A stretch of 64,000 bases of DNA from contig JBEWZL010000109.1 in assembly GCA_045837725.1 (NCBI GenBank), forward strand, positions 62,001 through 126,000. Direction: 5' to 3'. The notes below the pieces were generated by a model. That model did not search any database and was not told the DNA's origin. It saw only the letters and a program-made list of their open reading frames with translations. This document shows positions 369 to 11,682 of the stretch, piece by piece (the stretch's first letter is position 1; the number at the start of each line of letters is the position of its first letter). Source of the DNA: Vermamoeba vermiformis (taxonomy: Eukaryota). A program made the translations under genes and the position numbers.

Positions 369-3300
369 TCAAACCAGCTTCTTTTGGGCTCTTGCCTTGG
401 GCTTCTTCAAACCCTTCGGTCTGAACTTGCACGCTTGTTTCAAGATCAAGTTGCCAGTGATGTACTCCATGCAGTACATGCACGGTGAGTTGACGTCGCA
501 CCAGCTCAAACGCTTGATGCCAGCTTTAGTCTTGCGCGAGGGCATGCCATTAGTGCCGAGCATGTCTGCAATGTTGACGTCGCTCGAAACAGCCTCGTTG
601 AGGTTGACGATGTTTTCTTTGTCGTCCACCGCGCCGTTACTGCGCAGAGACCGCTTGACGCGCTTGTTAGGCTCGTAGCTGCCGTCAACGTCATCTTCTT
701 CACGCTTTCGACGACGACCAGGACCGGTAGCCGCGCGAGGTGCAAGAGGCGTAGCAGGCAACGAGACAGACATCTTGAGCGGTGTTGGGACTGCCAATGA
801 GTTCGAAGTCTTTGAAATGGTGTGATCCTGCACAGCTCCTGAGTGAGCAAAGTCGGACTCGGGACCGCCTCGGAAGTACCGAGTTTCGATCTTAGTTGTG
901 CCGATCTTCGTCTTGTTCTCAATCTGAACTGTGATGGTCACCAACTTCTCGATCATGTCCTCATCAGCAGGCTCCAAGTCAACTTCCATGTCTGACTCGC
1001 TGCTGGAAGGAATGTTCGGCACAGGCTTGGACAAGCCATCTTCAGGCAATTTCTCGTCAGTGGCGAGCAAGGACGAAGTCGAACTATCCTTGAGCTCCTC
1101 TGTCTTGATCTTGACGTCGGTGGCATCGCTCGAAGACTCGCTGACCTCACTAGTAGCGTTCAAGTCGATCTTGCTAATGTCCACCAACAATTGTGCTTCT
1201 TCAGGCTTTGCCTTGCTCAACTTGGCACGCATCTTAAAAGGCAAGCGGCGAAGGTTACCGTGTTCGATGAACGAAAGGGATCCGTCATTTTCGCTAGTGC
1301 TGTTTTCAGTGTTGTTATTTACATTGCTGTCGATACTGCAGTTGCTGTTGCTGTTCTCGATCTCCATCTCGTTTGATAGAACAGTAACTGTGTTACTCAA
1401 ACGAGTGGGCTCGATCTTGATTGGAGTGGCAGGCAACGACCAAGGCTCTTGCTTCGGAGGGACACGTGACTTTTGAAGCAGTTTTCTTCTGGTCTCAAAC
1501 TTTAGGGAAGCTAAAAATAGGTCGTAAGATTCTGATAAACTAAAATTAGTAAAATCGTTTGAAAACTTACGATAAGTGACGTGGATCTTGAGAGTCAAAG
1601 TGGTGTTGCCTTCAGAATCTGTCTCTTCATTGTAGTGGTGCGGATCATCTTCAGGAACGCAGAAGATGTTGTCCTCTTCGACAGGCTCATTGCTGTTATT
1701 ATTTACAACGATCGATTCGGGTTCTTCGACCGGTTGCAAAGGCAGTAAGTCACCAGAGCTGTTCAGATCCAGGGAATCGCTATTTACAAGTGAATCTTCT
1801 TTCTTTGGCGACGAACTGCCTTCGCAAGTCGAGAGCGGGGTGGTCATTGCATCGGAGGGGCGAGTAGCACTTTCAGAAGTGGTTGTCGGACGCACTTCCG
1901 AAGCGTTGCTGTTCTCAGATTTTACAATCTCTGATGCAGGGGTATGTACAGGGGTAGGGGATGGGAGTGTAGTGGTTTCGGTAATAAGGAGGGTGTTGTC
2001 TTCGTCGGTTGCATCGATGATTTCACGAGTTTCTTCTTTGATGATAGGAGCCAAGATCGGGCGTGAATCTGCGGCGAGTTGGATTGGTCTAGGAACAGGA
2101 ACGTCTGTCATAGCAACATCAATATCAGAATGATCGCTGCTATCAACGAGAGCGCTCCTCTTTCCTCGACTATTTTCAACGATGAGGTCGGTGATCTTGC
2201 AACTAGTTTGTGGTTTCAGATGATTGCTTTCAGAAACAAGCAAGAATTTGTAACGGAGGTTGCCATCGGGACCTTTCTCGCGCCAATAGAACTTGACTTG
2301 ATAAATGCCATCATAAGTCCAGCCTTGTTGAGGAGCAAATCCAGAGTTCAACTGGCTGCTGCGAACCAATCTCAAAGCAATCTTCTGCTCGTAGTTTGTT
2401 CGCAAAGCCTTGTTGTAGTGATTGTCCATCGACTGGTGCTCAAAAGGCGTTCCATTTCTGCGTCGACCTCCACATCCAGTATAGACGACTACTTTGCCAA
2501 GGTCAATGTCTTCACCGTAGCCGCCGCTCATCAATACAGACTCTGCTCCCTTCTTAGAGTTGCCGCATACGCCACCTAAATACGATCGATCAGAAAATGT
2601 TAGGGTTGCCAGACTTCAAAGAGATCTGTCAACGTGAAGAGGTTGATAGAGATCCCGATTGCGGCATCATACCGATCGGCTTTCTATGAACAGCTTTAGT
2701 CCATAATTCCGCGCGCTGCATAAAGCAGGCTCCCTCTTTATATTCGATGTTGCCGTAAAGCTCTTTCACTTAAAGAGAGAAATTTTAACATAGAAAGGGA
2801 AACTAGAAGATACTAATCTCTAGCGCGATTTGTTGACTTTGAAACTATATATAGAACTACTAGGGTAACTACCTTTCAGACGAGTAGCACTAAGTTGCTG
2901 ATATTCCTTCGCAAGGGCCACATCTCGTGCGATCCGATCTAACGCAGCTTCATTCACTGGAACGAATTCTAACGAATAATACGTTAGATAGTGCATTCAT
3001 ATACTATTTACATGAGGCAGTGCTATTGTTGTTGCTTACTAATAATGTTACGGAAAGTAAGGTTGATTCGGATGCCCTCTTGGTTTCTGACTTTCGGGAC
3101 GCAGTGTTCGTAGTACTTTTGCACTATACAAATGCCGTTAGAGCAGGTTTACGACGGAATAAAAGCTCCGCGGTGAGGTATTTAGTTCTAAAAATAGCTG
3201 CGTCAAATCCGCTAAGTACCTTCACCGAACATAAGCAGCAGAGTGCCGTGTTCCAAATTTACGAACTTCTTTTCTTCTGTCAAGCCACTTCCCTTCTTGG

Positions 3301-8344: not shown

Positions 8345-9726
8345 ATGCTGAGTGTCAACCACATCTTAGTTTCATATCGTGTATTTTCAAAGAAGGGTAA
8401 TACAATCAGTTGGCGCAGCTTTCGAGGCAGGTTTACTAACGTCAGATGCAGCTTTTGGCAGCTTTGTTCGCAAAATGTCAACGGCAACTAACAAATTAAT
8501 ACTTGTCAGCAAGCATACAGACGCATCTGGTAAGCAAATATGATATTTTTATTTTTTGAAATTTATTACTAATTATTTACGATTAATTCGAAGGTGCTGA
8601 CACTGGTGTTCGCGTTGTCAAGTTCAATAACCCGAGCAAATTGAATGCACTTAATGTAGATATGGGAAATGAATTTAATGTACGTAATATAACTTATGAG
8701 GTCAATACTAACGCGAGAAAAGGCGACTATGAAAGAACTCGGCAAGGACAAGGGTGTCCGTGCTATTGTATTGACGGGAGAGGGAAGGTATGCATTAAAT
8801 ATATATAGTAAACAATATTAAGCCAAAATTTGCAGAGCATTCTCCGCTGGAGGAGATCTGGACTTTTTGGTTGAACGAACAAAAGATCAACCGGTCAATA
8901 ACAGTCATATTATGCGGTAAGCTCAATATAAATTTAATACACTATTGTGTACTGATCGCTATGCGAAGAGAGTTTTATTCGCGCTTTTTGAGTTTCAGAG
9001 ACTTAGTTCACGTGCCCATTATCTCTGCCATCAACGGTACTTATCCTTAACGTAAATTAAATTAAATATGATACTAATACATTACGAATAGGTCCTGCCG
9101 TTGGTGCTGGTCTTTGTTTGGCCTCAGCAACTGATATTCGCATTGCTGCACACGACGCAAAGATGGGTTACAACTTTGTCGCGCTCGGTCTTCACCCTGG
9201 TACGTAGCTAGTATAGTGCCTTTATATACGTGTGATATTTAACCATTTCATCAAGGTATGGGTGCCTCTTATTACTTGCAGAAGTTGGTTGGCCCTCAAA
9301 TTGCTTTCCGATTGCTGTTGGTAAGTAACTTTGTGGCGTGACTTACGACATACTAATGCGAGAACGCGTCTTCAGACAGGAGAATTGATTACAGGCCAGC
9401 AAGCTAAAGAATTGGGATTAGTATTGGCGTCATATGAAAAAGACCAAGTACTCCCCGAAAGCTTGAAGTTAGCGGAAGCCATCGCTGCCAACGCTCCCGA
9501 AACAGTTAAACACACGACTGTGACTCTGAGAATGCACCAAGATGTTGGTCTCGATGCCGGCTTGCAACGGTAATGCTTGGAGACATTTTGCCTCGAGTTG
9601 AGACTAATGATATTGCTCCTTAGCGAGGCTGATGCGCAAGCACTGAGCTATGCAGGTAGTGAAATCAAAGAAGGTCTAGCGGCAGCTAAAGAAAAGAGAA
9701 AGCCCGAGTTCAAAGCAAACCTTTAA
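8345..9726 (+). CDS. Enoyl-CoA hydratase/isomerase (crotonase) family, probably mitochondrial
   Basis: Spliced exons give [58 protein letters not shown]; the N-terminus looks like a basic presequence. Confidence 0.9.
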
Positions 9727-9854
9727 GAATAAACAACAGCTCGCGAGAGATATTCACTTCAAGGAAGTTTTATTGTTACTCTTGAGTACACCACTATTCA
9801 CAATATACCCCACTAACCCACTAAAGTATAATACTATCTAACACATTAAACCCA

Positions 9855-11682
9855 TTACAGTTCAGTTTTAGGATTCGAGTCTCCACCGCGCAACATTGGC
9901 AACACGGAGAGCTTGAAGTAGTACCAGCCAATCAAGAACAGCACCACCATCACGAAGAAGAGCACGGGCTGGAACAAATGAAGGTTGAGCGGTTCGATGT
10001 TGATGAAAGCACGAATGCGTCTGATGGCTGGCGTGTTGACCTCGAGGGGCGGGCAATATTCGCCAGGACCGTACACGAGCCACTGATCTCCTGCTTTGTG
10101 CACTTTGCCCTTGTCGTCACGGAACTGTTCGCGAGCACTGACCCAAATCGCTTCTTCAGGGCTCAACAGAATGACTCGCTGCACAACACCACTCTCGAGT
10201 GCTTCACCTGGCTTCAAGAAGAAGGCGATACTTTGACGCTTGCCGTCGATCACTTCACCACGCACTAACTTTCTGACTCCCAATTGAGGCTTGCCGTCTT
10301 CACCAACAGGGATTGACAATAACACTAGGCAAAGTCAGTCCAAACTATCCAAGCTTAGATCCAGCAATTGAGGTACGTACCAGTAGCTCTGCTCATCGAC
10401 AATAGTTATCTTCACTTGTTGCGTGACTTCTTCATTGACGTCAGGGATGTAGGCCTCGCTGACGTCTTTAGTGACCAACCTATTTGCAACAAATGGCGTT
10501 AGTCATGATAATTTTCAATTGCCACGTCAGATATTTTGTTCGGTTCACTGAACCATTTTCACTGAACGCTTACCATTCCTCACCAGCACGACGAGACACG
10601 CCTCGACTGTCAACGAACGTTCTCTTCGCCTTCAAATGCAAGCTACAACTGCGCGTTAGAACAACACAAAGCTGACGTCAGACAATTGTTGCACACTTAC
10701 GCATTGACGTCGGTCAAAATGTACGCGTTGACGACCTCCACGACGACTTCATTCACGTCAGGCAAGTACGCGCCTTCTTGTTTCACGAGCCACTCTTCAC
10801 CGGCCTTGCGCTTGACTCGTTGGTAATCCACGCAGTCGTCTTTAGCTCGCAGTTTGAGGGCTTGATTGGGCTTGAGAATGATGGCGCGCACCGTGGCCAC
10901 GATTTCAACCTCGGGCTGCGGGTAATAGGTCTGCGGGCCTTTAAAGTGCCACTCTTCACCTGCACGACGGAAGGCTTTGGCGTAACGATCTTCAAAGTCG
11001 CGCTTGGATTTCAATTTCAGCGCGGTGTACTCTTCGACGATTTGTAGCGGTTGAATGTTGCCTTCGAGCTTTTCACCTGGATAAAGAGGAAAAGGATCTT
11101 GTTCAAATCTGATCTCTTGGTCTCCGTGGCGTAATCGAGCTTGTCCGTATTCATCCATAAGCTAGAAATTGGTTAATTAATTTATAGATTGCAAGGAAGG
11201 GTAAAACGTACAACGATATCGCCAGATTCTCCGGATTTCTTCAAGACCGGGTTAGAAATAACGGCAAAGTGGCGTGGCGGAATAGTAATCATCTTTGCAG
11301 GGCCCAACACCACTATGAATATTAGAGCGTTAGATATTTTAAATAAAGACTGCGGTGACGTCAACAGTTCAATTATTTCTTTGAAAATACCATTAATTTT
11401 GATCAGTTAATACACCCAAATTTAATTATAGTCGAGCTATAATAATGGCTAATTTATTTGATTTTATGAACAATAAATTTTGAATTTTCTTTGTTATTTT
11501 TGGATGTCTTACCTTTCTCGTGTTCCAAGCATGTAAATGTTTTAGGACCAGTCTCTACTGTGACCACGTTTCTATTGGTGTCCAAAATATGCAAGTAATG
11601 GAACGGCGGAATTCTTGATTGAATGTTAACGACAAAGACCTTAGCATAGATCCGTGCTTGCTTACCTGATAATATAATCCAT
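9855..11682 (-). CDS. Major vault protein-like: repeats R1-R7 only, plus C-terminal transmembrane helix and KTEL end; apparent 1-nt frameshift at 10309-10311
   Basis: [49 protein letters not shown], three RxAGEEW repeats, GKPQLG, FFLKPGE, KAGDQWLVYGPGEY; ends FQPVLFFVMVVLFLIGWYYFKLSVLPMLRGGDSNPKTEL*. Confidence 0.9.

Follow-up and report, generated by a model that had tools for sequence, protein, structure and literature searches.

The subject of this report is a gene on the minus strand (11682 to 9855) of a window of 64,000 nucleotides (nt) of Vermamoeba vermiformis DNA (GenBank assembly GCA_045837725.1, contig JBEWZL010000109.1, positions 62,001 to 126,000), which encodes a shortened relative of MVP, the major vault protein. 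Its product very probably belongs to a conserved group of tail-anchored membrane proteins whose vault repeats lie in the cytosol. Its predicted architecture consists of MVP residues 1 to about 398, a hydrophobic helix and a short tail, and the rest of repeat R8, R9, the SPFH-like shoulder and the cap helix are missing from it. The structure of the gene, its expression, conservation and purifying selection, and the domain limits of its product are direct observations. The best overall explanation is that of a tail-anchored MVP paralog that would form a membrane-side partial cage on which half vaults dock, and this explanation, taken as a whole, may equally well prove right or wrong.

The limits of the homology have been drawn on P0022, a close full-length ortholog of 438 amino acids (aa) with the same N-terminus and 95% identity in exon 4. 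Residues 3-380 of P0022 align to residues 6-373 of solved MVPs (E 1e-113 to 1e-116), the best structural match being 3gf5, a crystallized piece of mouse MVP that covers R1-R7 (E 2.5e-116). A profile-profile comparison of 36 family members with 25 full-length MVPs (probability 100; 45% identity at the profile level) carries the homology to P0022 residue 402, which corresponds to residue 398 of the MVP P0078 in the first hairpin of R8. An earlier, sequence-only reading of this DNA had traced MVP from its first residues through R7; that alignment holds and extends into the R8 hairpin. The linker that forms this extension (residues 378-399; 9975-10040, minus strand) carries the family motif A-F/L-L-x-I-E-P-L-N/G-L-Y-F-F-Q-P. 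The nine repeats R1-R9 of MVP are incomplete, as the homology stops at about MVP residue 398 inside R8 and the protein ends 36 residues on. In exons 4 and 7, Pfam recognizes Vault (PF01505) and Vault_2 (PF17794); it gives no significant match in the last 61 residues, and finds no SPFH-like shoulder (PF11978; SPFH/band 7) in the open reading frames of the window. Similarly, in precomputed Pfam lists the shoulder is absent from 19 of 20 relatives and present only in P0021, a true MVP. When this shoulder-containing MVP fragment was used as a tblastn query, no further MVP-like coding sequence, including a shoulder, was found in the 64-kb window. No cap helix or cap ring sequence occurs downstream of the stop before the convergent gene, and the transcript contig ends at 9789. 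Without R8-R9, an SPFH-like shoulder or a cap helix, the protein should be unable to close a vault.

The linker is followed by the predicted C-terminal membrane helix FQPVLFFVMVVLFLIGWYYF (9915-9974, minus strand; residues 400-419 of 438) and a presumed lumenal tail of 19 residues (9858-9914) with its KTEL end at 9858-9869; the tail plus stop, KLSVLPMLRGGDSNPKTEL, spans 9855-9914. The hydrophobic helix of about 20 aa and the 19-aa tail announced by the sequence-only reading are therefore in place. The hydropathy of P0022 (Kyte-Doolittle, 19-residue window) reaches 2.35 at the C-terminus versus 1.09 elsewhere, and the same analysis detects in this ortholog neither a second hydrophobic segment nor a signal peptide, the latter absence having been claimed before. 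By hydropathy, the protein has the make-up of a tail anchor, namely a single helix with 19 residues behind it and the bulk of the chain on its N-terminal side. The terminal KTEL is a tetrapeptide of the KDEL type. In a human reporter, KTEL was an efficient motif for the endoplasmic reticulum (ER), position -4 took K, R, H, N and aromatics, position -3 tolerated all residues except proline, and position -2 strongly favoured E (Raykhel et al., 2007; PMC2140024), which bears out the earlier view of KTEL as a functional retrieval signal. Further, two yeast membrane proteins are kept in the ER through a lumenal C-terminal HDEL (PMC2140024). A conserved terminal -EL is sensible only for a lumenal tail and hence fits a tail-anchored topology with a cytosolic N-terminus.

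The gene is not intact in the window as written, a fact that the sequence-only reading overlooked. A surplus base at 10308-10312 (minus strand; CVIVNP/VGEDG) sets exon 7 out of frame by +1, and frame 0 reads ...CVIVNPCW followed by a stop. Each of the two haplotype contigs of X1, the best DNA run, has one base fewer than the window, at 10308 or 10312. RNA contigs from runs X5 (1339 nt) and X13 are likewise without the base; hence the frame break is best taken as an assembly or consensus artefact, and it looks like a merge between two alleles. Orthologs continue in frame across the site, and after removal of the base the coding sequence has 1317 nt, that is, 438 codons and a single terminal stop. 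Alternative splicing was considered as a rescue of the frame and rejected, for only a 21-nt intron would work and no canonical splice was found. Other small indels separate the window from the read contigs, for example a C inserted behind 9850 in X5 and X13 (3' untranslated region, UTR) and, in introns, one base at 10519 and two bases at 10692 that are left out in X1. Such indels of one or two bases suggest assembly errors or strain differences, and other gene models of the window could be broken as well.

Spliced RNA contigs from the two runs X5 and X13 match the predicted introns 2-6. The X5 contig runs uninterrupted from 10307 to 9789 in the 3' UTR, and because it is unspliced over this length there is no splice in exon 7 and there are no more exons; with an AATAAA at 9769-9774 and the convergent gene stopping at 9726, the earlier claim that no room is left for further exons is upheld. 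The run contigs show 38 single-base differences, six of which lie in introns or UTR and were excluded from the coding count, and the 32 coding differences divide into 28 synonymous and four non-synonymous ones, the latter being conservative replacements. Over residues 374-438 the figures are seven synonymous versus two non-synonymous. The spliced RNA and the synonymous excess together demonstrate that the gene is expressed and under purifying selection, including the end that is not derived from MVP.

Relatives of the protein are numerous. A word-based search with the last exon gave three relatives out of 396 candidates and a second search gave 20 out of 366, of which 19 are 253-433 aa long and hold vault repeats only. 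Among the close relatives P0001-P0020, 12 possess the helix and an xxEL end (KTEL, KDEL, NTEL, SDEL, NDEL, KPEL, KKEL, KSEL and four times KQEL), another seven stop with the helix, and the remaining one is truncated by the end of its contig. An exhaustive profile search over 1.84 billion representatives returned 2032 matches at E<=1e-3, and among the best 150 of these 2032 a C-terminal helix is present in 39 proteins, 35 are MVPs of full length, and the other 76 are fragmentary or unclear. When the hydrophobicity cut-off was relaxed slightly from that used for the best 150 and R7 context was required, the architecture is present in 55 of 169 cluster representatives. The shoulder-less vault-repeat proteins with a C-terminal helix, a search for which the sequence-only reading had proposed, thus exist, and the gene is not a decayed duplicate.

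All of the 12 clusters that carried an organism name, out of 30 looked up, belong to Amoebozoa. The Dictyostelium discoideum member is DDB_G0282033 (Q54T29; 420 aa, 'hypothetical protein') and that of Heterostelium album is PPL_00988 (D3AXT1; 437 aa), which ends in DVEL. D. citrinum and D. firmibasis add further dictyostelid members, Flabellula baltica has two paralogs, and the other named genera are Gocevia, Paramoeba, Nolandella, Pyxidicula, Mastigella, Pellita, Stygamoeba and Dracoamoeba. The taxonomy of nine genera places them in three phyla, Tubulinea, Discosea and Evosea. A tree was built from the R1-R7 columns of 33 tail-anchored and 32 full-length rows, with fragments and MVPs below 780 aa excluded. 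On this tree the tail-anchored label changes twice, versus a mean of 21.9 after shuffling (0 of 500 shuffles were as low), and a tree that holds all 33 tail-anchored rows together beats the free tree (log-likelihood +23.04, p-AU 0.802). Because the label changes are so few and the constrained tree is the best found, one old origin of the family is the best reading of a tree whose backbone is weak.

A further set of cap-less proteins (P0058, P0064, P0076, P0082, P0128, P0157, P0182 and P0185) has R1-R7 and the linker motif and ends shortly after, in aromatic and basic residues (e.g., ...FFFWKKSRKSR) and without a hydrophobic helix. Either their gene models may break off at an intron that precedes the helix exon, or they may represent a third architecture, of a peripheral kind. 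With P0064 as the query, only P0064 itself and P0053 were returned.

The C-terminal ends vary within the family. Tails of at least 8 residues past the helix are found in 26 of the 55 members and 17 of these 26 end in -EL; the other 29 members have tails of less than 8 residues, none of which ends in -EL, and often show one basic residue and then three to four hydrophobic residues. The -EL ends have been seen in the window's own clade, in Dracoamoeba, Gocevia and Heterostelium, and in two unnamed lineages. The KTEL claimed earlier for the window's protein stands, but a KTEL-type end is not a trait of the whole family. Two members could depart from the common topology: P0209 (Stygamoeba regulata) has two C-terminal hydrophobic stretches that may form a hairpin, and in P0208 (Mastigella eilhardi) one transcript isoform bears a 130-residue N-terminal extension with a hydrophobic, signal-like start. 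For the window's protein, the proposal of a tail-anchored protein with cytosolic repeats, a lumenal KDEL-like end and neither shoulder nor cap is well supported by the recurrence of the architecture among the cluster representatives, the spliced RNA and the synonymous excess.

The mean pairwise identity in the family is even over R1-R7 (0.40-0.49) and falls to 0.32 in the linker and 0.16 in the helix, which is conserved in hydrophobic character and not in sequence. At the other end of the rod lies the R1 tip, the part through which vault halves meet. Human half vaults are joined by a hydrophobic patch (F6/I7/I36), a polar triad (N22/Q38/N40) and a salt bridge (D39-R42) (PMC13347060), and human residue n maps to P0022 residue n-3. 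In the family, N19 is kept in 21 of 22 members, E/D36 in 20 of 23, H37 in 17 of 23, E38 in 22 of 25 and K/R39 in 16 of 23; these positions correspond to human N22, D39, N40, E41 and R42 and sit in a conserved loop, T-C-x-[ED]-H-E-K. As these tip residues are kept, the vault-waist surface of the family looks functional.

From these features we infer the topology, ER residence, self-assembly and vault docking of the protein. R1-R7 and the first R8 hairpin would face the cytosol, the one C-terminal helix would span the membrane and the KTEL tail would lie in the ER lumen. Because only 19 residues stand behind the helix, insertion would be post-translational, in the style of tail-anchored proteins (GET/TRC40 or EMC), with the N-terminus left in the cytosol, as the position of the helix suggests. 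The KDEL receptor would return escaped molecules from the Golgi by their KTEL end, and such retrieval would make the ER and the nuclear envelope the steady-state location. The copies would pack side by side as MVP chains do in the vault wall, with their helices in one membrane and the R1 tip reaching some 17 nm into the cytosol. The resulting cap-less ring or partial cage would offer its R1 'waist' surface to a normal half vault.

Vaults on membranes have indeed been described. In a cryo-electron tomography study of D. discoideum, 14 of 999 vaults were bound in an upright position to the ER or nuclear envelope, on the cytosolic side (Geissler et al., 2026; PMC13100048). About 50 nm of the ~75 nm particle was visible, waist included and at one defined height, the upper half was normal, and below the continuous bilayer no cage was resolved; the membrane was thicker in a ring at the shell contact and thinner inside the ring, and the membrane-associating motif of the vault is, according to the authors, not known (PMC13100048). 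This work lends independent plausibility to the reading of the family as a vault anchor. The docked paralog ring could be the membrane-side part of these upright 'two-thirds' vaults, and it would account for each feature of the membrane-bound particles without rearrangement. One vault repeat measures about 2.5 nm. On this figure, a half vault (37.5 nm) and seven repeats (~17.5 nm) give a rough height of ~55 nm and a contact at the shoulder gives ~60-63 nm, so the seven-repeat estimate is nearer to the observed ~50 nm. That the family is the anchor of membrane-bound vaults is a tentative proposal with somewhat less than an even chance. More tentative still is its fullest form, in which amoebae may build a second, membrane-integral vault of ~39 paralog copies arranged as a cap-less barrel in the bilayer of the ER or nuclear envelope and paired through R1 to an ordinary half vault; the membrane would replace the cap, a defined patch of it would be enclosed, and the 'two-thirds' particles of Geissler et al. 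would be the result.

Several points weigh against this anchor. Geissler et al. put the membrane contact at the shoulder, beyond R9, rather than at R7/R8, and regard the particle as a complete vault whose cap is rearranged; the membrane-bound fraction is only 1.4% of vaults, and, against the height estimate, the map was built on only 14 particles at ~6 nm resolution (PMC13100048). Their main text names neither Q54T29 nor a paralog nor any DDB_G identifier (PMC13100048). In the human vault, 168 helix-cap residues give 144 lateral-contact residues versus 132 from the 646 residues of repeats and shoulder; in half vaults that are free, R1-R6 are floppy (PMC13347060). In lateral contacts the short helix-cap thus matches all repeats and the shoulder together, and this, with the floppy R1-R6, makes the unaided assembly of a cap-less ring uncertain; anchoring in two dimensions and the docking of a half vault could compensate for the missing cap contacts. 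The ER residence has its own difficulties. In D. discoideum the protein stops with the helix and has no xxEL, in the short-tailed members generally ER residence rests on the helix alone, and one member ends in KPEL, with a proline at the position where it failed in the human reporter (PMC2140024).

The alternatives to a vault-docking paralog share much of its evidence. The protein could act without vault particles, as a membrane tether by R1-R1 contact (ER-ER or ER-nuclear envelope), as open rings that fence patches of membrane, or as a membrane dock for vault cofactors such as PARPs and TEP1, which attach to the repeat region. Architecture and conservation speak for such roles as much as for docking, the even identity of R1-R7 implies that the whole rod and not just its tip is constrained, and proximity labelling of Dictyostelium vaults recovers PARPs and TEP1 (PMC13100048). 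However, the R1 tip retains the charge pair and the asparagine of half-vault pairing, full-length MVPs co-occur in both Dictyostelium and Heterostelium, the named species checkable for MVP (PMC3762200; PMC12547018), and the membrane-bound particles seen in situ have a normal upper half (PMC13100048), all of which makes a vault-free role unlikely. A less probable role is that of a regulator of vault assembly or opening at the ER, which would cap the waist of half vaults or sequester full-length MVP chains, and thereby restrict how many vaults close instead of anchoring working particles. The waist surface is kept and the assembly-driving cap helix is missing, as expected of a regulator, and free half vaults are unseen in Dictyostelium cells, which fits a binder; yet the membrane-bound particles are ordered and of one height, to which a structural role is better suited (PMC13100048).

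The helix might also target another membrane (mitochondrial outer membrane, peroxisome or Golgi) in the members without xxEL, possibly in all. The more than half of the members (29 of 55) that end less than 8 residues past the helix favour this, and short ends of a basic and hydrophobic kind do not by themselves specify the ER. On the other side stand the -EL ends of the window's protein and 16 other representatives, sensible only in the ER lumen, and the Dictyostelium vaults, whose membrane contacts were observed at no other site than the ER and nuclear envelope (PMC13100048); this targeting is accordingly rated improbable, on a level with the regulator. Far less probable than any of these is a decayed, truncated MVP duplicate, in which the frame break would be real and the hydrophobic end with KTEL a chance read-through. 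The +1 break in the last exon of the window is what suggests it, but the surplus base is absent from the two haplotype contigs of DNA and from the two RNA contigs, coding differences are synonymous at 28:4 and the same C-terminal end recurs across three amoebozoan phyla. The read contigs, this ratio and the 55 of 169 representatives that share the architecture practically refute a pseudogene.

Since 1986 it has been an open question what the vault does. The family is a concrete, falsifiable candidate for the membrane anchor of the vault in the genetically tractable Dictyostelium, and a membrane-integral vault, if true, would tie the particle mechanistically and directly to membranes or to ER quality control. 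Even without docking, a membrane-bound branch of the MVP family, conserved as it is, would be new biology for what has been regarded as a purely soluble particle. Annotation is affected too, as the family is automatically named 'major vault protein' although its members should be unable to form vaults. In the main texts of the literature searched, no description was found of a membrane-anchored, tail-anchored or KDEL-bearing MVP paralog, and neither DDB_G0282033/Q54T29 nor PPL_00988/D3AXT1 was found named. Amoebozoa are treated as having two full-length MVPs (Daly, 2012; Daly, 2013; the 2025 trypanosome vault paper). The 'short MVPs' of Naegleria (Daly, 2012) were considered as members of the same family and rejected, being 530-559 aa long and shoulder-containing. 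Hence, the sequence-only reading, which knew of no membrane arm of the vault system, was right as regards the protein family; the membrane association of vaults itself has been published (Geissler et al., 2026; PMC13100048).

The exons of the gene lie on the minus strand between an ATG at 11682 and a TAA at 9857-9855, and the introns are 50-200 nt long with canonical GT..AG borders throughout. Exon 1 (11666-11682) holds the start codon and the first residues of R1, MDYII, the N-terminus being the same in P0022. Exon 2 (11513-11613) encodes the remainder of R1 including the conserved tip loop TCLEHEK, and exon 3 (11212-11312) covers R1/R2; RNA joints are found at 11312/11513 and 11161/11212. 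Exon 4 (10701-11161) spans R2-R4 (Pfam Vault, E 2.8e-30; Vault_2, E 3.8e-16), its 95% identity to P0022 being a tblastn value. Exon 5 (10574-10642) contains the start of R5, with RNA joints at 10642/10701 and at 10477/10572, where the cut may be shifted two places to the right to give 10479/10574. Exon 6 (10381-10479) continues R5, with an RNA joint to 10381, and exon 7 (9855-10324) encodes R6, R7, linker, membrane helix, tail and stop (Pfam Vault, E 9.8e-15). The AATAAA, a poly(A) signal candidate on the minus strand 81 nt past the stop, is weak evidence alone, with 111 matches within the window, and the RNA contigs reach 9789. The convergent neighbour (8799-9726, plus strand) is a multi-exon gene for an enoyl-CoA hydratase (ECH_1). 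Elsewhere in the window, 369-2615 (minus strand) is an open frame of 748 aa with a SAD/SRA domain (E 6.9e-25). A second X5 RNA contig of 1321 nt matches the gene only at 10074-10091 and 10919-10939 (18-21 nt) and is otherwise unlike it; it may represent a paralog, for example the full-length MVP of the same organism. The gene sequence was also found at 95-99% identity in runs under six organism labels (runs X1-X20) and in water, aquifer, soil and root metagenomes, so that the source organism appears to be widespread or a frequent companion in cultures.

Among known systems, the nearest is MVP itself (rat, human, Dictyostelium MVPA/MVPB; PDB 4V60, 4HL8, 3GF5), with which the paralog shares homology over residues 3-402 and an R1 tip kept in kind. 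Unlike MVP, it lacks R8-R9, the PF11978 shoulder, the cap helix and the cap ring and has a membrane helix and tail instead, and the tail-anchored family forms a clade apart from the 32 full-length MVPs. Q54T29 and D3AXT1 belong to the same family, with R1-R7 followed by the C-terminal helix, and carry the automatic name 'Major vault protein', but are only ~39-42% identical to the window's ortholog. AGR2 and other soluble KTEL proteins end in the identical tetrapeptide; they are lumenal and have a signal peptide, whereas the KTEL of the paralog sits on a short tail behind a helix. Closer in topology are the yeast HDEL membrane proteins, which are single-pass and have a cytosolic N-terminal domain and a lumenal KDEL-type end (PMC2140024). 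In sequence and function they are unrelated to the vault paralog. They are presumably Sec20p and Sed4p, whose lumenal parts exceed the 11-21 residues of the vault family in length. The SPFH cages (flotillin, erlin, prohibitin, stomatin, HflK/C), to which Geissler et al. liken the membrane-bound vaults (PMC13100048), are membrane-anchored oligomeric half cages that fence a patch of membrane, and the MVP shoulder is itself an SPFH domain. The paralog differs from them in that it has no SPFH domain, its anchor is C-terminal and not N-terminal, and the wall of its cage would be made of vault repeats.

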